The notes under the pieces: generated by a model
Told to the model about the DNA's origin: nothing
Seen by the model: the letters and a program-made list of their open reading frames with translations, nothing else
Databases searched by the model: none
Shown here: positions 17,826 to 27,386 of the stretch, in pieces
How positions within the stretch are numbered: the stretch's first letter is position 1
Layout of the letters: each line of letters begins with the position of its first letter
Source: Theionarchaea archaeon
GTDB taxonomy: Archaea > Methanobacteriota_B > Thermococci > Methanofastidiosales > SZ-28-30
Assembly (NCBI GenBank): GCA_018992685.1
Contig: JACVGT010000007.1
Location: 32,001-96,000, forward strand
DNA length: 64,000 bases
Direction: 5' to 3'
Translations under genes and position numbers: made by a program

Positions 17826-18894
17826 TGGCAATCCCTCCTTTCCTGATTTTCTTGAAGATTCTGAACATTTCAGGAGCTGCCACAAACAGTATCACGATAC
17901 CCTGGATCACCACCACCAGATCTGTGGGGACATTGGTCATCTGTTTCATGACCATCCCTCCGTTCCGCAGAGCACCAAACAGCAAAGCACCCAGTACTAC
18001 TCCCACAGGATGGTTTCTCCCCAGAACAGCAACAGCGATCCCGTCAAATCCGTACCCCGGGGAGAATCCGAAAATAAACCGTTTGTGCAGTCCCAGTACC
18101 TCGCCTGATCCACCCAGTCCTGCCAGCATTCCTGATATGAACATCGATATGATAATGCTTTTCTGGACACTTATCCCCCCGTATTCTGCAGCTGTGGGGT
18201 TGAGTCCTACTGCTCTGATTTCGTATCCCAGGGTAGTCCTATACAGAATATAGTACGTGACACCGACGCAAATGAGAGCCACGATTATGGCTGCTGATAA
18301 CTGGGTGGAGGGTACCAACCGTGGAAGCTGGGCTGATGGTGTAACAACATCAGTCTGAGCAATCCATCCTTCAGCCTTCAAAGGATAGTTGGCCAGATAG
18401 TTGCACAGGAGCACACCGATGTAATTCATCATAATGGTGGTAATCACTTCATGGGCACCCACCCTGGCTTTCAACACACTGGGCACCAGAGACCATGCAC
18501 CACCTGCAAGGGCCCCGGCTCCCAGGGCCAAAGGAATGTGAAAGAACCAGGGAAGCCAGGCAAAGTTGATCCCTACCACGGCAGCAGTAATGGCCCCAAC
18601 GTACAGTTGTCCCTCACCACCAATGTTGAATAACCCACATCGAAAGGCGAAGGCCACGGTCAGCCCTGTAAAGATGAGGGGTGTTGCCCTTGTGAGGGTC
18701 TGGGCAAAATCATACGTACTGCCGAATGCACCTTCGTACAGTGCCTTGTATGCCTCAAGAGGCGATGAGCCTGCAAGATATACAATCACTGCTCCCACCA
18801 AAAGGGCAGCAATAACAGCAATGATTGAGATAAAAATGTCCATCAGACTTTCTTTTTGAATAACCTGAGTTATTTTTATTAATCGTGGATTCAT
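17815..18894 (-). CDS. Nucleoside/sugar ABC transporter permease
   Basis: GLFNIGGEGQ, GYEIRAVGLNPTAAEYGG, GYGFDGIAVA. Confidence 0.92.
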   Translation of the reverse strand: MNPRLIKITQVIQKESLMDIFISIIAVIAALLVGAVIVYLAGSSPLEAYKALYEGAFGSTYDFAQTLTRATPLIFTGLTVAFAFRCGLFNIGGEGQLYVGAITAAVVGINFAWLPWFFHIPLALGAGALAGGAWSLVPSVLKARVGAHEVITTIMMNYIGVLLCNYLANYPLKAEGWIAQTDVVTPSAQLPRLVPSTQLSAAIIVALICVGVTYYILYRTTLGYEIRAVGLNPTAAEYGGISVQKSIIISMFISGMLAGLGGSGEVLGLHKRFIFGFSPGYGFDGIAVAVLGRNHPVGVVLGALLFGALRNGGMVMKQMTNVPTDLVVVIQGIVILFVAAPEMFRIFKKIRKGGIANAF

Positions 18895-20420
18895 GCGTGT
18901 CCACCTGCCATCAATAATCCCAGTTCTTCTTCAGTGGTCTTCTGAGGATCTCGCTCTCCCACAATTTTCCCTTCGTAGATGACAGCGATCCTGTCAGAGA
19001 GACAGCGAACCTCATCTAAATCTGCAGAAATGAGAAGTATGGCCTTGTCCTTTTTCCTCATGCTGAGAAGGGTTTCATGGATGAACTCGATTGCGCCCAC
19101 GTCGAGACCTCTGGTAGGCTGTGAAGCGATAATAATCTCGGGCTCTCTTCCCAGTTCTCTGGCCACAATCACTTTCTGCTGGTTTCCACCTGACAGATAT
19201 TTGACCTCACTGTGTACCCCAGTTCCTCTAATGTCAAAGGTCTCCACCAGCTCGGACGCATATGAATCCACCTTATCATATTCCATTCTGAACCCGCGGG
19301 AAAAAGGAGCCTTAAAGTGGGATCCCAGTATCAGATTCTCGGATAGAGAGAAATCCTGGATGAGCCCTCTCTTCTGGCGATCTTCAGGGATGTGGGATAC
19401 TCCTGCGTTGATGAAGTCCCTCGGGGAGGAATGTGTTAGATCTTCCCCGTTTACAAGAATCTTCCCCCCGCTTGGGCTTCGCAGTCCCGTTGCCGTTTCT
19501 GCCAGTTCCAACTGGCCATTGCCTTCAACTCCCGCAATGCCAAGAATCTCACCTTTCCGCAGTTCCAATGTTATCCCCTGTAGGGCTTTCACTCCTCTCT
19601 CATTGTATGCTTCCAGGTTCTGCATCTGCATCACAGCCCCCTTTGGGGGGTGAGGAGGTTTTTCCACTACCAGGCAGACTTCTCTGCCCACCATCATTCT
19701 TGCCAGACTGGCAACATCTGTTTCCCCGGTGTGAACTGTTCCCACCAGTTGTCCTTTTCTCAGCACGGTGATGCGGTCACAGGTCGCCATGGGTTCCTTC
19801 AGTTTGTGGGTGATGAAAATGATAGTCTTTCCTTCTTCTTTTAACGATTTCATAACTTTGAACAGTTCTTCCCCTTCTTGTGGGGTCAAGACTGCTGTTG
19901 GTTCATCCAGAATGAGAATTTCAGCTCCCCGGTACAATGCTTTCAGAATCTCTACTCGCTGTTCAATGCCTACTGATATATCCTGGATCTTGGCTCTGGG
20001 GTCTACAGCAAGACCATACCGTTTTGAGATTTCTTCAACATCTCGTGCTGCCTTTTCTCTGTCCATGAGGAAATGAGTCTCCGGCTCAACACCCAGGACA
20101 ACGTTCTCAGCCACAGTGAAGGGAGGCACTAACATGAAGTGCTGGTGGATCATGCCAATACCCAGTGAGATCGCATCATTGGGATTTGTTATCGCAGTGG
20201 GCTTACCATTAACAGAAATTTCACCAGAATCAGGCTGGTATAGCCCATACAAGACGTTCATTAACGTGGTCTTTCCCGCACCGTTTTCTCCAAGAAGAGC
20301 ATGAATTTCTCCTTTTCTAACTGAAAAAGTAATATCGTCATTCGCCAGAACACCAGGGAAGCGCTTGGTTATGTGTTGCATCTCCACAGCATTGATGGGT
20401 TCTGCATTCATTGCCATCAT
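18891..20420 (-). CDS. Nucleoside/sugar ABC transporter ATP-binding protein (two NBDs)
   Basis: GENGAGKTT, LILDEPT, LSGGNQQK, SQPTRGLD. Confidence 0.93.
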   Translation of the reverse strand: MMAMNAEPINAVEMQHITKRFPGVLANDDITFSVRKGEIHALLGENGAGKTTLMNVLYGLYQPDSGEISVNGKPTAITNPNDAISLGIGMIHQHFMLVPPFTVAENVVLGVEPETHFLMDREKAARDVEEISKRYGLAVDPRAKIQDISVGIEQRVEILKALYRGAEILILDEPTAVLTPQEGEELFKVMKSLKEEGKTIIFITHKLKEPMATCDRITVLRKGQLVGTVHTGETDVASLARMMVGREVCLVVEKPPHPPKGAVMQMQNLEAYNERGVKALQGITLELRKGEILGIAGVEGNGQLELAETATGLRSPSGGKILVNGEDLTHSSPRDFINAGVSHIPEDRQKRGLIQDFSLSENLILGSHFKAPFSRGFRMEYDKVDSYASELVETFDIRGTGVHSEVKYLSGGNQQKVIVARELGREPEIIIASQPTRGLDVGAIEFIHETLLSMRKKDKAILLISADLDEVRCLSDRIAVIYEGKIVGERDPQKTTEEELGLLMAGGHA

Positions 20421-20534
20421 AAGCGTATTTCCCTTAAAAAGGCTACCGGTTGCATCTCTGGTGGCAGTATTTGATGGGCGAATTCTCACGATAACAGCTT
20501 AGGCAGTTCCTGCAAAATCAGACACCTCGCCCCT

Positions 20535-22379
20535 CTACTTCCTCATGGCTGTCTTTCTTTCATGATTTTCGGTTCTAGCCTCTGCCCCTGGCACTCTTTT
20601 GTCTGCTCTCAGCACTGAGATGATGTTCTCGAGAGACTGGTCATAGTACAATACGCCCCTTTCTCTGAGAATCTCCAGTATGTGCAAAAGCTCTTTCTCC
20701 TCCAGATGGGAAAAGTGTTGCTGTACCTGGGTGAATGACGTTATGCTGTCACAGAAAACTAGAAGGTCGGTCTCGTCTCTGCTAAAGGTACAGGAAAGAG
20801 ACCTTGATCCTTTTTCCTTAAAGGCAGAACAATCGGGATATTCTGTCCACTGATAATCGCTTCCAGCCCGGGAATAAAACTGCAGAAGTCTTTGAAAGGT
20901 GTTCCACAAAAGGTAGTGGCGAATTCTCCCTGCAAAGAATCCAAAGAATTCAAATCGTTCCCCCTCTGGCAGCTGCAAGACAGATGCGATTTCTGCCCAC
21001 ATGGGGTCTTTGTTGTAGGCATCCCTTTCATGTTCTGACATCTCATTGTAATATGGTGATCCCTTGTACAGTGTGAAGTACTTGGGGACAATGGAATACT
21101 TCCTCAGGAAGAATCTCAGAAATCTCAAGTTCACACAACTCTCCAGGACGTCTTCCTCAGTTTCAGGTGGCGTCTCTGCTACAAAATTCCCTTTGATCTC
21201 GAGGTTGTGTTGATCCCCGAGCTTGAGAGCCTGTATATTGTGGGCAAAAGAGTGTCTCTTTTCCATTTTCTTCAAGAGAGCATCAGTCATTGCTTCAAAT
21301 CCGATCTGCACGATTTCAAAACAAACCTTTTTCATGGCACGTGCTGTATCGGGGTTGATGAAGATTGGAGATGCTTCTGCAAAAAGGCGGTAGGGACGTC
21401 CTCTTCTTTCAGAACTTTCCACAATCAGGGCAAGCAGATGGTGGAATCGCTTCTTGTTACCGGGGAGTTCAGTATCTACAAATACGAATGTGTCACCACC
21501 GTGTCTCTTGGACTGGAATTCCAGTTCTTCGACAATGTTCTCAGGAGATCGAGCCCGATATGAGAATTCCTCATTCAGAACGCAAAATTTGCACCTGTTC
21601 CAGGGGCAGGAGCGCGACCCCCAAATGGGGATGATGACCCGCATGTCTTCATGAATGTGGGTTTTCAGTGCCGCAAAATAGTCTGTGTGGTCTGCAAATG
21701 GGTATGAATCCAGATCACAGCTTTCAGAATGCTTGTTTGTTGAGATGATGGCGGCACCATCCCGGTACACCAGATGAGGGATCTCGGTGAACGTTCCCTC
21801 TCGTATCCCCTGAATCAGATGAACCAAAGGGTATTCTCCCTCCCCCCATACAGCGTAGTCAGCCAGCTCAAATACCTTCATAAAGGCGTGAGCCTGTTCA
21901 TCATTGCGAATCCCTCCAATGACGATCTGTATTTCGGGGTTTAATTCTTTCAGTCGCCTCATTACATAAGAGCTCAGAAGCCACTGGTAGGTCTTTAGAG
22001 TAAATCCCGCCAGAGGTTCTTTGTAGAGGCCATTTTGGTATATGTAGTCATCGATTTTTGTTCGAAGTGTGTCTACAAAGGGAGGTATTTTCCCCTGATC
22101 AAAAAAGGGTGAAAAATACTGGTCGAGAACAGTCGTCTCGTGATGGGCACCTGAGAGATGTCTCACTGTATACAGAACGGGAGTATTAAGAGAGGACAAG
22201 GATGAAAACACAGGATAGTCCCCAATGTGATCCTGGAGTTCTGACAGCTCCTCAGCAAGTATTAGATTCCAGTAGATATTTGTCACAGAGATTCCCCTTG
22301 ATTGCAGGAACCCTTTCAGATATCCCAAAGCAGGATTGGGAATATCGTAACTGTAGGGGGGCAAACAGTTTAGTATCAT
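20535..22379 (-). CDS. Cobalamin-dependent radical SAM enzyme, RiPP-maturation C-methyltransferase-like
   Basis: N-terminal PP...P.PALGYLK B12 domain, IVIGG, GEGE, SRSCPWNRCKFC cluster motif (Cx4Cx2C), QIGFE; ATGA overlap with upstream rSAM. Confidence 0.82.
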   Translation of the reverse strand: MILNCLPPYSYDIPNPALGYLKGFLQSRGISVTNIYWNLILAEELSELQDHIGDYPVFSSLSSLNTPVLYTVRHLSGAHHETTVLDQYFSPFFDQGKIPPFVDTLRTKIDDYIYQNGLYKEPLAGFTLKTYQWLLSSYVMRRLKELNPEIQIVIGGIRNDEQAHAFMKVFELADYAVWGEGEYPLVHLIQGIREGTFTEIPHLVYRDGAAIISTNKHSESCDLDSYPFADHTDYFAALKTHIHEDMRVIIPIWGSRSCPWNRCKFCVLNEEFSYRARSPENIVEELEFQSKRHGGDTFVFVDTELPGNKKRFHHLLALIVESSERRGRPYRLFAEASPIFINPDTARAMKKVCFEIVQIGFEAMTDALLKKMEKRHSFAHNIQALKLGDQHNLEIKGNFVAETPPETEEDVLESCVNLRFLRFFLRKYSIVPKYFTLYKGSPYYNEMSEHERDAYNKDPMWAEIASVLQLPEGERFEFFGFFAGRIRHYLLWNTFQRLLQFYSRAGSDYQWTEYPDCSAFKEKGSRSLSCTFSRDETDLLVFCDSITSFTQVQQHFSHLEEKELLHILEILRERGVLYYDQSLENIISVLRADKRVPGAEARTENHERKTAMRK

Positions 22380-23704
22380 TCATGGGCCTCCTTTTGCTTA
22401 CTGACATATGTTTTCACCTGTGGCAGCCCGAAAACCTGCCTGGTAAAATCCACGGTGAAACAGCCAGGAGCATCCAGTGTTCCTTTCTCTCTCAATGCAA
22501 TGGCAGGGCATCCCCCCATACACCGGGGAAGCATGACGCAGGCTTTACACTCAGTAATGGCCAGGGGGTTGCGGGCCATCCACGAGTAGTATGCAGGTGT
22601 TTTGTCCAGAGAACCACGAGAGTTCAGAGACCCCACAGCATGGCGGGTGTCTCCTACCAAAGACATGCACTTGTAGACACGGCCATCCACATTGATGATG
22701 TGAAACCAATCAGTAATACCAGCACACAAGGAAAAGTACACACCAATTCCAAAAGGGAGTGTGGTGAATCCTTTGTGAGCAGCCATTTCCATGACTTCAC
22801 TGAAGAGATCTGAAGTCCCCGGATATCCGTAAGAACTGTAGTAGTGGGTACAGTAATCCATGCGGGGAGTAACCGTCCCAAAGTAGGTATGGGCCTTCTC
22901 AAGGCCAGCTTCTCTCAACATTTCAAGAAAGGTAATGATATTGTCTTCCCATACGTTAATTCGCATAATCAGATTCATGCCATGATCTTCAACACATTGG
23001 GCACCCTCTACCACTGATTGCAGGCTGCTTGTCTCATCAGGGAAAACCCTCCTGGTGTGGTGGTAGTACTCAGGTGCATCAAAAGTGATATGAATATCTG
23101 CTACCGTGAACTGTGAGAGGTTGTCGAGTCCTTCAGGAGTAAGGAGAGTTCCATTGGTGAAGAGCTTGATGAGGAGAGAAATACCTGCTTCACTACATGC
23201 CTCTTGCAGGGTTTCAGTAAGAGAGGTTATGCACTCTTGATTCAAGAGTGGTTCTCCTCCGTAAAGACTCACAAAGAGCGTGTCAATGCCTCGTACGATC
23301 TGATTCTCAGCAAAGGTTACCCCTCTTTCTGCTACCTTCTTGCTCATATGCCCAGTGCAGGCAGAAGAATTCCTGTAGCAGTACCTACAGTTCAAGTTGC
23401 ATTCGTGCGTGACAATGAAGTTCAAGAATGCAACTCTCCCAAGAGGAGAGCCCCGATATCCTGTAGAGGGGAGGCACCACTTCTTCTGTTCCAAGGAAGC
23501 CTGTATCAAGTTCATCTCTTGACCGGTGTCCTCTATGAGAAGTCCCTGCTTTGATAGTGCTTCAATAATCTCAGGGGAGCCTTTTCCGGTCATGAGGACG
23601 TCATACATTTCAGAATCAATCACTGTGAGAGACCCGTTCAATGTATTGTATACAAGGAAATCCTCTCTAAATGGGATAATAAAGCAGTACTGTGATCTCT
23701 GCAT
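22376..23704 (-). CDS. Radical SAM/SPASM peptide maturase 2
   Basis: RRE-like N-terminus (LVYNTLNGSL), CNLNCRYC, YGGEPLL, TNGTLL, SPASM C...GRVYKC...CKACVMLPRCMGGCP...C. Confidence 0.88.
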   Translation of the reverse strand: MQRSQYCFIIPFREDFLVYNTLNGSLTVIDSEMYDVLMTGKGSPEIIEALSKQGLLIEDTGQEMNLIQASLEQKKWCLPSTGYRGSPLGRVAFLNFIVTHECNLNCRYCYRNSSACTGHMSKKVAERGVTFAENQIVRGIDTLFVSLYGGEPLLNQECITSLTETLQEACSEAGISLLIKLFTNGTLLTPEGLDNLSQFTVADIHITFDAPEYYHHTRRVFPDETSSLQSVVEGAQCVEDHGMNLIMRINVWEDNIITFLEMLREAGLEKAHTYFGTVTPRMDYCTHYYSSYGYPGTSDLFSEVMEMAAHKGFTTLPFGIGVYFSLCAGITDWFHIINVDGRVYKCMSLVGDTRHAVGSLNSRGSLDKTPAYYSWMARNPLAITECKACVMLPRCMGGCPAIALREKGTLDAPGCFTVDFTRQVFGLPQVKTYVSKQKEAHE

Positions 23705-23709
23705 AATAA

Positions 23710-25053
23710 TCAAACCCAGATGATCTTTCCCGCCTTGAACCGGTCAGGAAGCTTCTTTTCGAGGTACCAACGAAGCTGATGTTTCATTTCCTGGTACGGT
23801 GCATAGCATCCAACTGCGTGGAATGTCCCATGCTTTTCATATGCAACAGCAGCACATCCTCCCCCACATGAGGGTAGCATCTGGCACTCACGACATTCCG
23901 GTATCTGCAGGGGGTCTCTGCTCATCCAGTCGTAGTAGGTCCATGTATACTCTGGTATGGTACCGTCTTCTGAAATATGACCAATGGAATGGTTTTTCTG
24001 CCCCACGAAGGTGAGACACTTGTAAAGATCTGCATGAGGATCTATGATGAAGGTTCCTTCCCCTAGGAATCCACAAAAGACGTGAGCTGGCTTGTGGGTG
24101 CGAATGACAGCAGCCGCTTGACCTTTTTGATCCACAATATCTCTGAATTCAGCAAGTACCTCACGGGCTTCTTCCTCTTTAATGCACTTGGAGTAGTCCT
24201 TACATGCTTGAGTTGATGCCCCCACTGTACCACAGCGCACAGGGACATTCTTGAATCCCCTCTCCTGAAGCTCGTCCAGCAGCTCACCGATGAACGGTCT
24301 GCTTTCAGAATCCACGTTCACCCTAAAGCTCACTCCGACGTTTTGGTCCTGCAGAATGTGAGCTGATTGCATCATGTCATCAAAGGTACCTCCTCCACTC
24401 TTGTAGAATCGTTTGGTGTCGTGGATGCGTTTGGGACCATCCAGCGTGATCTGTACGTAGTCTGTGTGGTAGCGCTTCAACGTTTCAGCTATTTCAGGTG
24501 TGACCAGAGTACCATTTGTCACCATCATTGTCACGTATGAGATGCCGTGGTCTTCTGCCCAGGAAAAGCAGGAATCCATAATGTACTCAGAATCGTCGAA
24601 TCTGAGCAGTGGTTCACCACCATACAGCGACACAGAAAATTCCCGCGCGTGAGTGTCTTCCACGTATTTCTTTATGAATTTCACAGTTCTTTCCCTGGTG
24701 TCAGCATTCATTGTCCCGCGGAATAGCTCTCCTTTTCCTTCATAGCAGTATGGACATGCTAGATTGCAGGCATATGTCGTTATGAGCATGAAATGGGGAA
24801 AATCCACCGTGTATTTCCTGTATTCATATCCTACCTTGAATTTTCGAGATTCATCAAAATCATCTTCTATGATTACCTTGAGCGCTGCAAGAGATTTGAA
24901 CAAGTCAGAATCCAGAATGTCAATATTCCCGGCTTTCAAAGCTTCCTTCAGCTCTTCATCTATTCCTATTACTGCACCACTCATCATGTTGGCCAACAGG
25001 TATTCTCCAGGAGTCTCTGTGGGGATAACTATGTTGAAGTTTGACACTTTCAT
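23710..25053 (-). CDS. Radical SAM/SPASM peptide maturase 1
   Basis: MKVSNFN RRE-like N-terminus, CNLACPYC, YGGEPLL, QITLDG, SPASM C...DLYKC...CRECQMLPSCGGGC...C; RBS GAGGTGA. Confidence 0.9.
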   Translation of the reverse strand: MKVSNFNIVIPTETPGEYLLANMMSGAVIGIDEELKEALKAGNIDILDSDLFKSLAALKVIIEDDFDESRKFKVGYEYRKYTVDFPHFMLITTYACNLACPYCYEGKGELFRGTMNADTRERTVKFIKKYVEDTHAREFSVSLYGGEPLLRFDDSEYIMDSCFSWAEDHGISYVTMMVTNGTLVTPEIAETLKRYHTDYVQITLDGPKRIHDTKRFYKSGGGTFDDMMQSAHILQDQNVGVSFRVNVDSESRPFIGELLDELQERGFKNVPVRCGTVGASTQACKDYSKCIKEEEAREVLAEFRDIVDQKGQAAAVIRTHKPAHVFCGFLGEGTFIIDPHADLYKCLTFVGQKNHSIGHISEDGTIPEYTWTYYDWMSRDPLQIPECRECQMLPSCGGGCAAVAYEKHGTFHAVGCYAPYQEMKHQLRWYLEKKLPDRFKAGKIIWV

Positions 25054-25068
25054 GAGGTTCACCTCAGG

Positions 25069-25099
25069 AAAAAAGAAAGGCAGGTTGAACTGCCTTTTG
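25069..25099 (-). terminator. Hairpin plus U-tract between precursor and first maturase
   Basis: Minus strand AAAGGCAG-ttcaac-CTGCCTTT followed by CTTTTTT. Confidence 0.6.
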
Positions 25100-25107
25100 T
25101 TATAGAC

Positions 25108-25215
25108 TTACACATAGGGGTGGCAAATTCTGCAGCACCAGGAACCAGTTCCTTCCGTGATGCACAGAGGCTCCATGATTTGCTCTTCTGCTTCGATGAG
25201 GATAGTCATGTTCAT
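25108..25215 (-). CDS. Putative RiPP precursor peptide, 35 aa (MNMTILIEAEEQIMEPLCITEGTGSWCCRICHPYV)
   Basis: Read manually, below the ORF-track cutoff; ATG 25215, TAA 25110-25108; acidic leader and Cys/aromatic core; TATA box 20 nt upstream; directly upstream of the rSAM/SPASM genes. Confidence 0.8.
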   Translation of the reverse strand: MNMTILIEAEEQIMEPLCITEGTGSWCCRICHPYV

Positions 25216-25234
25216 AGATTCCACTTCCTATTGC

Positions 25235-25250
25235 TATATAAAGTTTCTCT
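25235..25250 (-). promoter_or_regulatory. BRE/TATA promoter of the RiPP precursor
   Basis: Minus strand AGAGAAAC-TTTATATA ending about 20 nt before the ATG. Confidence 0.65.
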
Positions 25251-25527
25251 TTATCTTTATATACTTTTCTATTCATATGAATTCTACTAATTTCGTCACT
25301 CTTATAGTAATCAAATAAGAGCAAATGCAGAAGCCAGTAGTCTTTAAAGACAATATCTCTTGATATTTTGGACTACTTTCGTCCATGTGAGGTTAAATGC
25401 AGAGATTCTCAACCGAAATGCCCCCTTTTCTCACTTTTGTAAAAAGTGATAATGTTCGGTAGAAGAGCTCTCCCTCACAGATTTTGCAGAATCTGGTAAT
25501 TGCACCTGCGATCATGAGCTGGCCCGA

Positions 25528-25560
25528 GAACAAAAAAGTAAAAAGTAAAAAGAAGAAGTA
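25528..25560 (-). terminator. T-rich terminator after the BMP gene
   Basis: Minus strand oligo-T runs (CTTTTTA/CTTTTTT) immediately after the stop codon. Confidence 0.55.
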
Positions 25561-26601
25561 TTAATCCCAGGTGTATTCACCGGCCTCGTCAATACCAGTG
25601 GGAACCTTGATTTCGCCAGATGCGATCTGCTCCCTGTAGTCTTCAATGATGTCTCGTATGTCATTAGGCACGTGCTCGCAAGCACCAACACCATTCTCTT
25701 TTGCGCCAAAGCTCTGTATGCCGCCTGCAAAAGTCCCGTCGATTACCTGCCGTATGGTCTCGTATACAGCTACATCCACACGCTTTATCATACTGCATAA
25801 GAAGGTCGTTACCGGTACTCCCTCAATGGTGTCGCACTGATCCGCATCTACGCCAATGACCAATCCACCACGTTCAAAAGCCGCCTGGATAGCTCCCAAG
25901 CCAGATCTTCCGGCAGCAGCGAACACGATGTCTGCCTCTCCGTCATACTGAGCAAGGGCAAGCTCCTTTCCTTTTGCAGGGTCTACCCAGTCGCCCACAT
26001 ACTTCCAGGTGACCTCAACATCTGGATTGACGTACTCGGCTCCAAACTTGTAGCCAGCCAGGAATTTTCGAATCAAGGGTATGTCCATTCCACCTACAAA
26101 TCCAATCATATCAGTTTCAGTTTTCAGACCAGCAGCTGCTCCTACCAGGAAACTACCTTCGTTTTCCCTGAATACAAGAGAAGCCACATTAGGTTTGTCT
26201 ACCACCATGTCCACGATCGCAAACTTCTGGTCGGGGTATTCATCTGCAACAACAGTGATGGCATCTGCCTGATCAAATCCTATACCTATTATCAGTGCAT
26301 ATTCCCCGGACTTGGCGTACTGCCTGTGGAATCCTTCGTACTCAGCGATGGCTGTAGGTTCAACATAGTCAAATTCAATGCCGAAATCATCTCTAGCCTT
26401 CTTGATACCTACGTAACAACTATCATTGAAGCTCTTGTCTCCTAGTCCACCAGTGGCAAAGACAACAGCAATTTTCAATTCGGGGGGTGGGGGTGTAGAA
26501 GTTGGTGTCGGAGTTGTGGTTTCTTCCTCCTGTCCGATGCATCCCAATGTAAGGGAGCACAAAACTACCAGGGTGAACAGCATCTTAATACTTTTGTTCA
26601 T
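25561..26601 (-). CDS. BMP family ABC transporter substrate-binding lipoprotein (purine nucleoside type)
   Basis: Lipobox TLGCIG, Thr/Pro linker, GGLGDKSFN, IGFVGGM, IGVDADQ. Confidence 0.92.
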   Translation of the reverse strand: MNKSIKMLFTLVVLCSLTLGCIGQEEETTTPTPTSTPPPPELKIAVVFATGGLGDKSFNDSCYVGIKKARDDFGIEFDYVEPTAIAEYEGFHRQYAKSGEYALIIGIGFDQADAITVVADEYPDQKFAIVDMVVDKPNVASLVFRENEGSFLVGAAAGLKTETDMIGFVGGMDIPLIRKFLAGYKFGAEYVNPDVEVTWKYVGDWVDPAKGKELALAQYDGEADIVFAAAGRSGLGAIQAAFERGGLVIGVDADQCDTIEGVPVTTFLCSMIKRVDVAVYETIRQVIDGTFAGGIQSFGAKENGVGACEHVPNDIRDIIEDYREQIASGEIKVPTGIDEAGEYTWD

Positions 26602-27386
26602 ATGATTCCCTCCACGCTCACAGAGCTTGAGTAGATTTAAATACGTTTCGATGAAGCACCGAGGGTTCACTTTGATGTTAGAAGGAGCGTATGCGAGTCG
26701 TTGCTTTTCCGAAATGATGGTCCATTTGCAGGCCAATGAAGTCCTCCTCAAGAGCAACTGGGATTCGCTTTTTCTTTCTTACCCTCTTCCAGCTTTTCCT
26801 TCTTGTTTACAGGGTTCCGGTACAGTCCTTGTGTGAGAATCCCCTTTCTCATTCTTGAAGAAGTTCCTTCATTCTTGAGACCCCTCGCCCAGCCTCAAGG
26901 AAGCGTTGCTCTTCAGAACCAAAAAAGCTTTAGGGTCAAGGACTGAAAGGGAGGTGAAAGATGTGAATCTGCCCGTTTCAGTAAAACCCTCAATTTCCCC
27001 GCTCTCTCGGTTCTGGGTTCAGAAGGAAGGAGTTTTCGTGACCAACGGCGCCCGTGATTTAAGGGACCCAGAAAGCTGTAGCTCCCACTGTTAAAGTTGA
27101 AATAATTAGAACTCTTTGCTGAAGTCCCATCGGCATTCAAAATGTTCTCGTTCTCACTACCTGTTCTGGTGGGTAGGACGCCCCGGCAGCCCTGTCCCAA
27201 AGCTTCTGCTCTCACGTACATTTTGATCTCCTGGTTCTTTCAACTTCCTTCCTCTGGAGACTGAGATGGAGGTTCAGTAGCGTGGATTCCTGCAGCCTGC
27301 ATCTCAGTCCATGTGTACAATCCTGTCTGAAAAACGGGATACACCTACGGAAGATTTATATAGGGTTTATATTAATTTTCTGTTGC

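Follow-up and report, generated by a model that had tools for sequence, protein, structure and literature searches.

To our knowledge, rSAM-modified peptides of archaea have been predicted in bulk and almost none has been characterised. Functional characterisation of archaeal RiPP clusters is described as remaining limited (PMC12144867), and the first archaeal SPASM thioether enzyme is reported to act on a protein and not on a peptide (PMC13692751). According to the same account, CrpC of Methanococcus voltae, a TIGR04463 member, makes ranthionine links within C-x-x-x motifs, its thioethers join Cys to a residue that follows it by one to three positions, and C-X-X-Q/D is singled out as a thioether motif; QhpD, as cited there, makes a Cys-Glu S-C(gamma) link, and 5wgg/5why is given as the structure of CteB (PMC13692751). 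For thuricin CD, TrnC and TrnD are described as inactive alone and as forming a tight complex in which rSAM activity is essential in TrnC only (PMC12093266).

The locus that we describe lies in a 64,000-nt stretch of DNA from a Theionarchaea archaeon (the window), where a gene for a 35-residue peptide is followed by three tightly packed genes, two for rSAM/SPASM maturases and then one for a B12-type rSAM (Table 1). Our reading, to which we give a probability of roughly 70%, is that the peptide is a RiPP precursor of Theionarchaea, its leader held on an RRE-like domain, its core crosslinked by the two SPASM enzymes and methylated by the cobalamin rSAM, with Cys thioethers as the most likely products.

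Table 1. Features of the peptide-maturase cassette and its flanks, in coordinates of the window
Feature	Position	Strand	Remarks
BMP/PnrA-family ABC substrate-binding protein gene	25561..26757	-	PF02608, 229.9 bits; upstream of the cassette
TATA-like box GTATATAAAG, putative archaeal promoter	25255..25264	-	~40-50 nt upstream of the start codon; function proposed from sequence
Shine-Dalgarno-like box GGAAGTGG	25221..25228	-	5 nt before the ATG; putative SD role
Candidate precursor peptide gene, 35 aa	25108..25215	-	Translation of window 25215..25108
8-bp hairpin (25097..25076), then C + T6 (25074..25069)	25069..25097	-	Between the peptide gene and maturase 1
rSAM/SPASM maturase 1, 447 aa	23710..25053	-	SD GAGGTGA at 25065..25059
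rSAM/SPASM maturase 2, 442 aa from the ATG at 23704	22376..23704	-	5-nt spacer after maturase 1
B12-binding-domain rSAM, 614 aa	20535..22379	-	Start overlaps the maturase-2 stop by 4 nt
ABC ATP-binding protein gene, same transporter	18891..20489	-	Downstream of the cassette; real start probably near 20420 or later

The peptide gene is real and present as it had been described in an earlier, sequence-only reading of this DNA. The peptide quoted there, with no strand given, is the exact translation of the minus strand, ending at a TAA stop (25110..25108), and the residue numbers assigned to C18, C27, C28, C31, W26, H32 and Y34 are correct on that translation. An in-frame GTG at 25224 would extend the peptide by three residues, but it falls within the Shine-Dalgarno-like box. 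By itself a 35-codon ORF is what chance would produce, since 205 ORFs of at least 25 aa were counted in 15 kb; this one rises above chance because of its conservation in G001, a MAG of the same genus, because further homologous peptides exist, and because of its gene-like setting. The ORF in G001 is identical to that of the window at 102 of 108 bases, and of the six DNA differences four are synonymous, one is R29K and one changes the stop from TAA to TGA; the distal upstream spacer is identical at 108 of 144 positions (75%). With 20.7 synonymous and 84.3 non-synonymous sites, dS is ~0.19 and dN ~0.012, and the chance of at least four silent changes among five is ~0.006 (binomial on the G001 counts), values that point to purifying selection on the protein sequence of the peptide. 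The box at 25255..25264 persists in G001 as a TATA-like GTATTTAAAG and the Shine-Dalgarno-like box is unchanged there; a second TATA-like box (25243..25234) has decayed. Further upstream, a 37-aa ORF that contains a CIC motif (25386..25273) was discarded as a gene because neither its start codon nor its frame is kept in G001.

Ten distinct peptides of the family were found in public data, and their alignment has 13 invariant columns: M1, M3, L6, A9, E15, P16, C18, E21, G22, G24, W26, C27 and C28. The peptides span 30-35 residues, each with a single core, and the motif C18-x-x-E21-G22-x-G24-x-W26-C27-C28 is conserved throughout; even distant members, at 47-56% identity, keep the 13 invariant residues, which include three Cys, the Trp and two Gly. 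The leader comprises approximately residues 1-17, the core begins at C18, and the tail of the window's subtype reads R-I-C-H-P-Y-V. C31, H32, P33 and Y34 belong to this subtype alone (3 of the 10 peptides), which has four Cys where the other subtypes have three; the tails of those subtypes are [VI]YW[WY] or YV, so that every tail in the family is rich in aromatics (Y/W, or H..Y). The sequence-only reading had called the leader acidic and hydrophobic. Residues 1-17 of the window's peptide do hold four Glu and no basic residue, and the family shares the hydrophobic stretch M-x-[IV]-L-[ILV], but the acidity is not conserved, other subtypes carrying K4 and K12.

These peptides were reached by several routes. 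Metagenomes gave 7 further distinct homologous peptides, and homologues had been called by the JGI gene callers as "hypothetical protein". An exhaustive phmmer run returned six hits, two of them real small peptides; the other four (P0002, P0003, P0004 and P0007) are long repeat proteins whose matches are repeat-driven, and they were rejected as homologues. A profile search with a natural 43-aa homologue as its first row gave 5 hits among 60 candidates, and tblastn with six family peptides against 63 loci matched in the window and G001 only. The peptide profile gave two hits, G000 and G001, among 34 genomes of the order and again only these two among 133 genomes of the phylum, the genomes searched being species representatives of which several are incomplete. 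The window's own genome holds a single precursor gene (one match). No NCBIfam peptide model matched the peptide even at E 10, the best feature score in a search of the ESM Atlas (0.80) was uninformative, and the core motif was not found in the literature searched. The family was found only in uncultured Theionarchaea, and it is a probable new RiPP family.

The position of the peptide gene links it to the enzymes. On one strand, 54 nt separate its stop at 25108 from the ATG of maturase 1 at 25053, and G001 has a matching layout, with the ORF ~50 nt ahead of a maturase 1 that is 92% identical. G001 is the one other genome in which the linkage is direct; elsewhere it is drawn from contigs of identical nucleotide size and source. 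Matched in this way, a 17680-nt contig carries the peptide with maturase 1 at 63% and maturase 2 at 53% identity, a 73878-nt contig the peptide with a maturase 1 in a 59% cluster and maturase 2 at 51%, and contigs of 12878, 5153 and 3868 nt the peptide with maturase 1 at 62-63%. On size-matched contigs, maturase-1 orthologues thus accompany five peptide clusters and maturase-2 orthologues two of these five. A precursor-type peptide gene directly before SPASM maturases, as the sequence-only reading had proposed, is borne out by G001 and the size-matched contigs, and the ORF is conserved upstream of an orthologous maturase, directly so in G001, so that the lack of conservation named there as refuting the reading does not hold. 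The maturase-1 orthogroup is sharply bounded, with 20 clusters at 56-92% identity and the remaining matches listed at 38% or less. Scans for maturase 1 gave 8 loci in genome contigs and 20 in metagenome contigs, the sole orthologue being the G001 contig (92%) and the others at 37% or less; these scans missed the 56-73% orthologues because exact 8-residue words were needed. Among public DNA contigs a G001-like haplotype was recovered, together with one more diverged contig. The sequencing runs with the locus, among the matches listed, were 18 DNA runs in 7 studies and no RNA run.

Modelling of the leader with a maturase N-terminus had also been proposed in that reading, and for maturase 1 it predicts binding. 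The complex of peptide and maturase 1 scored ipSAE 0.72, 0.73 and 0.75 against 0.01 for the best of three controls, a mark that 58 of 80 solved complexes attain, as do 2 of 110 mismatched pairs; own alignments were used, and familiarity of the predictor with solved RRE-leader complexes may account for part of the score. In the model, peptide residues 1-14 lie on residues 19-59 of the N-terminal domain of the enzyme, with no less than 66% of contacts common to the runs and a partner pLDDT of at least 49. The interface residues S25, G26, A27, D32 and E34 of maturase 1 are invariant in 18 orthologues. At a partner pLDDT of ~50, the model places the leader but not the core. On this model the leader (residues ~1-17, with M-x-[IV]-L-[ILV]) would add a beta-strand to the RRE-like domain at the N-terminus of the rSAM/SPASM enzyme encoded next to it.

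The peptide gene and maturase 1 are separated by a terminator-like site, a hairpin followed by a run of T, and the hairpin is identical in G001 at 22 of 22 positions. At -10.8 kcal/mol (z -1.6) the hairpin is weak by itself, since 11 of 200 shuffles fold equally well, and no credible Rfam family was matched (best hit 19.4 bits; gathering score 229). As a candidate partial terminator, hairpin and T6 may set the ratio of precursor to enzyme, and would probably yield an excess of precursor transcript. The order of small ORF, hairpin with T-run and operon resembles bacterial attenuators, and the ORF could on that ground be taken for a regulatory leader peptide whose hairpin attenuates the rSAM operon, or for a chance ORF, and not for an enzyme substrate. 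We regard this as highly improbable, given the selection on the protein sequence, the 13 residues kept by the distant members, a hairpin that is thermodynamically unremarkable, the lack of an Rfam match, and the predicted docking of the leader on the RRE-like domain with controls at or below 0.01.

The cofactor motifs of the enzymes are intact. Maturase 1 has an N-terminal RRE-like domain, a CX3CX2C motif (C96/100/103) and a SPASM domain with seven Cys (327, 346, 387, 390, 396, 400 and 416), and all of these Cys are invariant across 18 orthologues. Maturase 2, ~29% identical to maturase 1, likewise begins with an RRE-like domain of its own; its CX3CX2C motif lies at C102/106/109, and its seven SPASM Cys are spaced as in maturase 1. 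Both exceed the PF04055 threshold of 29.5 (70.1 and 50.3 bits for maturases 1 and 2); the SPASM model TIGR04085 matches maturase 2 at 45.4 bits (cutoff 27) and for maturase 1 stands outside the best 25 of 71 matches. The B12 rSAM aligns over residues 6-577 with TIGR03975 (RiPP maturation rSAM C-methyltransferase) at 163.4 bits (cutoff 281.85), scores 54.7 bits with PF04055 and 25.1 with the B12-binding PF02310, below 32.1, has its cluster motif CX4CX2C at 258-266 and is 84% identical in G001. It is a probable peptide C-methyltransferase, which would C-methylate one residue of the peptide.

In the reading that we favour, the core around the conserved motif would be crosslinked by both SPASM enzymes. 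The two could instead constitute one obligate heteromeric maturase, as do TrnC and TrnD, in which perhaps a single partner is essential for catalysis: the genes stand in tandem with a minimal spacer, both enzymes are conserved in all subtypes with maturase-2 data, and there is one precursor gene for the pair. This arrangement is possible, if clearly the less probable of the two, as each enzyme keeps a full set of rSAM and SPASM cysteines and an RRE-like domain of its own. It shares with the thuricin CD cluster two tandem rSAM/SPASM genes in one thioether-peptide context; thuricin CD is bacterial, has two precursors against one here, and has no B12 rSAM as the cluster is described in PMC12093266.

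The cassette of 5 kb is inserted in an unrelated BMP-type ABC importer operon, between the genes for the binding protein and the ATPase; in genome G003 the ATP-binding gene begins 43 nt after the binding-protein gene. No transfer signature accompanies the insertion, since the GC of the cassette (0.467) matches that of the window (0.468) and there are no flanking direct repeats, the best shared word being a 10-nt inverted match. Among the genes of the cassette there is no protease, exporter or immunity gene; the absence of a protease and an exporter is unusual for a secreted antimicrobial. This absence, the site within a transporter operon, the thiol-rich core with its CC pair (CC-x-x-CH in the window's subtype) and a link between an archaeal Crp cluster and growth on pyrite, with possible metal binding (PMC13692751), would all suit a product that is no secreted antimicrobial but an intracellular or cell-bound peptide that binds metal or acts in redox chemistry, with a nutritional role reflected in its position in the importer operon. 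We think this unlikely. Cysteines turned into thioethers would offer no thiolate for metal, the His and the fourth Cys are specific to one subtype, RiPP transporters and proteases are frequently encoded elsewhere, and the insertion site may be accidental.

W26 and C18, C27 and C28 are credible modification sites because they are invariant in all ten peptides. The sequence-only reading had named W26 and all four cysteines; W26 and three of the Cys stand, and C31, present in 3 of 10, does not share their conservation. Judged from the sequences, the likeliest chemistry would be thioether formation together with methylation. The products are most likely to be thioethers derived from Cys, either ranthionine- or sactionine-like, and the best-motivated single link would join C18 to E21.

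If the precursor reading is right, the locus is a minimal, well-delimited test case, with a substrate of 30-35 residues, a leader of ~17, a conserved core of 13 and three enzymes, in which natural subtype variation marks C18, E21, G22, G24, W26, C27 and C28 as essential and the tail as optional. One can learn from it how a single tiny core is shared between two divergent SPASM enzymes and what a cobalamin rSAM contributes, and it gives a handle on the secondary metabolism of an uncultured archaeal class. It may even represent a new RiPP class, a doubtful but consequential extension, in which two SPASM enzymes and a cobalamin rSAM would build a compact, multiply bridged core of 13-18 residues on the invariant C-x-x-E-G-x-G-x-W-C-C motif with at least one step new to thioether peptides (such as a methylated bridge, or modification or crosslinking of the Trp beside the vicinal Cys pair), for a role in a sulfur- and metal-rich sediment niche and not in antibiosis. 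If this holds, it would give Theionarchaea their first rSAM natural product.

SPASM enzymes of similar sequence also form C-C, C-O and other bonds, and the chemistry is not transferable by homology here because every curated family cutoff is missed. The sequence-only reading had proposed a hybrid scaffold, with aromatic crosslinks (C-C, C-N or C-O) at W26 and H32-P33-Y34, cysteine thioethers, and one type of bond for each SPASM enzyme. Like dynobactin and triceptide maturases, the enzymes are SPASM-type rSAMs with a short aromatic substrate: W26 is present in 10 of 10 peptides, all tails are aromatic-rich, the two SPASM enzymes are both divergent and conserved, and DynA (NF041298) is a detectable relative at 112.6 bits for maturase 1 and 68.0 for maturase 2. 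That score is nevertheless far from the cutoff of 450, and maturase 1 matches YhhB, FxsB and GrrM/OscB at 87.9, 67.3 and 65.8 bits (cutoffs 445, 370 and 310) over the rSAM core only (residues 92-240, 90-241 and 96-277), whereas Cys-peptide maturases align end to end at two- to threefold higher scores (for CefB, 383/219 against 113/68). With the dynobactin motifs W-x-x-N and H-x-Y taken as that reading quoted them, no Asn follows W26 and H-x-Y is absent from 7 of 10 peptides, as are H32, Y34 and C31. Subtypes that lack the His-x-Tyr element still accompany both SPASM orthologues (on size-matched contigs), and a dynobactin-like link at this element thus cannot be why either enzyme is kept. We consider the hybrid scaffold quite improbable, and the proposed crosslinks at H32-P33-Y34 are not upheld by a motif confined to the window's subtype. 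Each SPASM enzyme may still make a bond of its own kind.

The best full-length NCBIfam matches of the maturases are instead maturases of Cys-rich peptides, namely CefB, TIGR04463, Clo7bot, geopeptide and PapB, and by sequence the enzymes are nearest to the Cys-peptide and ranthipeptide maturases CefB, TIGR04463/CrpC and CteB, below every curated cutoff. The PapB-family model NF047865 gives 160.9 bits for maturase 1 and 112.1 for maturase 2 (cutoff 340). The nearest solved structure to maturase 1 is 5wgg/5why (E 1.5e-22, residues 89-418), and the model presented here resembles the CteB/SCIFF system in a single small Cys-containing precursor whose recognition would depend on an N-terminal RRE; against TIGR03974, the SCIFF maturase model, the scores are 99.3 and 72.1 bits (cutoff 425), and the peptide is not of the six-Cys-in-45 kind, having four Cys, or three in the other subtypes. 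CefB (NF038107) is the best-scoring curated family, at 383.1 and 218.6 bits (cutoff 600), and it aligns with both maturases over their full length (4-440 of 447; 4-439 of 445), the N-terminal recognition domain included. CefB biochemistry was not found in the literature searched; its substrates presumably have Cys at every fifth position, a spacing that we take from the family name alone, and the peptide here differs in having Cys at 18, 27, 28 and 31. TIGR04463 comes second, at 215.5 and 162.0 bits (cutoff 525), and CrpC, of this family, is an archaeal enzyme with the same layout of RRE, rSAM and seven-Cys SPASM domains and with the same Cys spacing as the maturases here (numbering of PMC13692751). 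The substrate of CrpC is described as a 28.8-kDa protein with ten 17-residue repeats, against a single-core peptide of 30-35 residues here (PMC13692751), and the present locus has two SPASM enzymes and a B12 rSAM; where C-X-X-Q/D is the motif flagged for CrpC (PMC13692751), the Theionarchaea family has an invariant C-x-x-E.

The peptide gene is real and is under purifying selection. A bare 35-codon reading frame is uninformative because 205 ORFs of at least 25 aa lie within 15 kb in the ORF listing; the tests for a real gene are conservation and linkage. The sequence-only reading had proposed a precursor here, and its peptide is the exact translation of the minus-strand ORF, with C18, W26, C27, C28, C31, H32 and Y34 correctly numbered. 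A search of 61 related genomes with maturase 1, the first of two rSAM/SPASM proteins encoded behind the peptide, gave matches in eight at E ≤1e-30, and the sole orthologous locus is that of a same-genus MAG (G001:C154; 92% identity, next best 37%). There the peptide ORF precedes the maturase 1 orthologue, with R29K as the only residue change. The ORF DNA is identical at 102 of 108 positions, the six differences being four synonymous changes (E15, G24, S25, V35), R29K and TAA>TGA (dS ~0.19 over 20.7 synonymous sites, dN ~0.012 over 84.3 non-synonymous sites); the distal upstream spacer is identical at 108 of 144 positions and the 3' hairpin at 22 of 22.

Features of the peptide locus (window positions)
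Feature	Position	Strand	Remarks
BMP/PnrA-type ABC transporter substrate-binding gene	26757..25561	-	flanks cassette
TATA-like box	25264..25255	-	upstream of peptide gene; read from sequence
TATA-like box, second	25243..25234	-	upstream of peptide gene; read from sequence
SD-like GGAAGTGG	5 nt ahead of peptide ATG	-	read from sequence
Precursor peptide, 35 residues	25215..25108	-	translation; TAA stop ends ORF
8-bp hairpin, then C + T6	25097..25076 (hairpin)	-	3' of peptide stop
GAGGTGA	5 nt ahead of maturase 1 ATG	-	read from sequence
Maturase 1, rSAM/SPASM, 447 aa	ATG at 25053	-	PF04055, 70.1 bits
Maturase 2, rSAM/SPASM, 442 aa	23704..22376	-	5 nt past maturase 1; PF04055, 50.3 bits
B12-type rSAM, 614 aa	22379..20535	-	4-nt overlap with maturase 2 gene

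Only one copy of the peptide gene is present in its own genome, and neither Pfam nor NCBIfam gives a match to its product at a threshold as loose as E 10. A second candidate, an upstream ORF of 37 aa that contains a CIC motif (25273-25386, minus strand), was rejected because G001 lacks both its start codon and its sequence. In three marine-sediment metagenome runs (X3, X4, X10; window 24700-25600) a G001-like haplotype, with the same R29K, TAA>TGA and silent changes in its contigs, is found beside the window's own, and two close strains therefore co-occur in these sediments. One further metagenome contig is more diverged, with 29 differences and four gaps across 270 nt of the locus; the locus was found in none of the RNA runs.

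In both the window and G001 the 5-kb cassette separates the binding-protein gene of an ABC transporter of BMP/PnrA type from its ATPase gene. The gap between these genes is ~5.1 kb in the two genomes versus 43 nt in G003, which shares their family but not their genus (compared over window 18891-26757 (minus strand), L062:1-2370 and L032:1748-10592); the cassette was therefore inserted into the transporter operon in the window's lineage. Neither flanking repeats nor a GC shift mark the cassette, and it holds no protease or exporter. Read-through from it may now be needed to express the ATPase and permease genes. Long T-rich runs (e.g. CTTTTTACTTTTTACTTTTTTG) lie just past the binding-protein stop (25520-25560, minus strand) and may be an archaeal oligo-T terminator insulating the peptide gene's own promoter.

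An exhaustive phmmer search of 1.84 billion representatives with the 35-mer gave six matches at E ≤1e-3, of which two are real small peptides (40 and 30 aa); the other four, long repeat proteins, were rejected as family members. P0003 (499 aa; E 1.7e-6) is a chance match to the peptide, unrelated to the locus; it has ~15 PLCLFHGQGCWKR-like units with acidic and KR-containing spacers between them and resembles a multi-core repeat precursor of eukaryotic, possibly fungal, origin. Together with the cluster members of the two peptides and a profile search (five matches among 60 candidates), the family comprises 10 distinct sequences, in which M1, M3, L6, A9, E15, P16, C18, E21, G22, G24, W26, C27 and C28 are invariant and E10, E11 and L17 nearly so. 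Three tails distinguish its subtypes: R/K-I-C-H-P-Y-V in that of the window (three sequences), [VI]-Y-W-[WY] in a second (six) and Y-V in a third (one). Of 34 genomes searched in the order, 2 match the peptide profile, as do 2 of 133 in the phylum; in each case these are the window's own genome and G001.

Maturase 1 has 379 relatives at E ≤1e-40, and among the best 120 its orthogroup is sharply bounded, with 17 full-length and three partial clusters at 56-92% identity and all others listed at ≤38%; maturase 2 has 12 matches at E ≤1e-60 (47-100% identity). Outside G001, the linkage of peptides and enzymes is inferred from contigs of exactly equal size within the same source. Peptides P0005 and P0009 thus accompany both maturase 1 (P0017, 63%) and maturase 2 (P0137, 53%) at 17680 nt (JGI), as P0006 does at 73878 nt (JGI; P0153, in the 59% cluster, and P0140, 51%). 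At 12878 nt (ENA; P0011 with P0018), 5153 nt (JGI; P0008 with P0019) and 3868 nt (ENA; P0012 with P0020) the partner is maturase 1, with no size match for maturase 2 among the 12 matches listed. All named members are 'Theionarchaea archaeon' bar one 'Candidatus Methanofastidiosia archaeon'.

The identification of the ORF as a precursor was right: it is conserved and stands in front of three rSAM genes with intact cofactor motifs. The dynobactin-style His-x-Tyr crosslink suggested with it is not supported, as C31, H32, P33 and Y34 are confined to the window's subtype, while subtypes without C31, H32 and Y34 still appear, from equal-size contigs, to be accompanied by both SPASM enzymes.

The two maturases carry the rSAM motif CX3CX2C (C96/100/103 and C102/106/109) and a common seven-Cys SPASM spacing (327, 346, 387, 390, 396, 400, 416 in maturase 1; 327, 346, 386, 389, 395, 399, 415 in maturase 2). 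The NCBIfam families that score best against them, with end-to-end alignments, all mature Cys-containing peptides: CefB (NF038107; 383.1 and 218.6 bits for maturases 1 and 2, cutoff 600), TIGR04463 (215.5 and 162, cutoff 525), Clo7bot (201.6 and 145.4, cutoff 600), geopeptide (183.8 and 151.5, cutoff 400) and PapB (160.9 and 112.1, cutoff 340). Since no curated cutoff is reached, both lie outside every named family. DynA scores 112.6 and 68 bits (cutoff 450), and for the cyclophane formers YhhB, FxsB and GrrM the match is confined to the rSAM core. Among solved structures the closest is 5wgg/5why (E 1.5e-22), 5WHY being CteB according to PMC13692751. Paralogues of these rSAM/SPASM maturases are very numerous in the genus and frequently come as tandem pairs (11 matches in the window's genome, 22 in G001). 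Directly upstream of several lie unrelated small ORFs of their own that are rich in Cys (L031:2965-3123 (-), L020:2726-3067 (-), L005:1207-1428, L007:1062-1214, L014:2815-2913 (-)). Among these ORFs are one of 52 aa on contig C18 of the window's genome, containing a GCGGCCC run, and, in G002, another genome compared, a tandem pair of peptides that both begin with MMFNWIE.

The leader is predicted to bind an RRE-like domain of maturase 1. Complex modelling, a check proposed in the sequence-only reading, with our own alignments of enzyme (18 rows) and peptide (8 rows) gave scores of 0.72, 0.73 and 0.75 in three runs versus 0.01 for the best of three controls, although solved RRE-leader complexes exist and the model may owe some of its score to them. 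Of 80 solved complexes 58 attain that mark, against 2 of 110 mismatched pairs. The three runs agree on at least 66% of contacts, with partner pLDDT at least 49. In the confident interface peptide residues 1-14 lie against enzyme residues 19-59, with a C-terminal patch in addition, core placement falling outside the model. Residues 2-7 pair with enzyme residues 26-32, in the model a classical leader strand insertion into an RRE, and S25, G26, A27, D32 and E34 of maturase 1 are invariant among 18 orthologues.

The SPASM enzymes would form thioethers from the invariant cysteines. A C18 to E21 thioether would be the best-motivated single link because PMC13692751 describes a TIGR04463 enzyme that installs ranthionine links inside C-x-x-x motifs, treats C-X-X-Q/D as a thioether signature and cites QhpD for a Cys-Glu S-C(gamma) link. 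The two enzymes may each install a different bond or may act jointly in a complex; TrnC and TrnD of thuricin CD act as a complex, according to PMC12093266. With an invariant Trp next to a Cys pair, unusual chemistry is conceivable.

The 614-aa protein probably adds one or more methyl groups to the peptide. By sequence it resembles RiPP C-methylating B12-rSAM enzymes (TIGR03975, 163.4 bits over residues 6-577, cutoff 281.85), its B12-binding domain scoring sub-threshold. In place of the canonical rSAM motif CX3CX2C, the protein has CX4CX2C as its cluster motif (CPWNRCKFC, residues 258-266, window 21582-21608, minus strand), identical in the G001 orthologue (84% identical protein).

The core motif was not found in the literature, the motif search giving only unrelated primer strings, and no Theionarchaea biosynthetic gene cluster or radical SAM system was found there, the radical SAM matches being off-topic by title and abstract; Cys-every-fifth, Clo7bot, TIGR04463 and NF038107 do not occur among the literature matches listed. 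As a kind of system, an rSAM/SPASM-matured Cys peptide is already known; the novelty lies in the combination of this precursor family, whose leader and core are both very short, with two subfamilies of maturase and a B12 rSAM.
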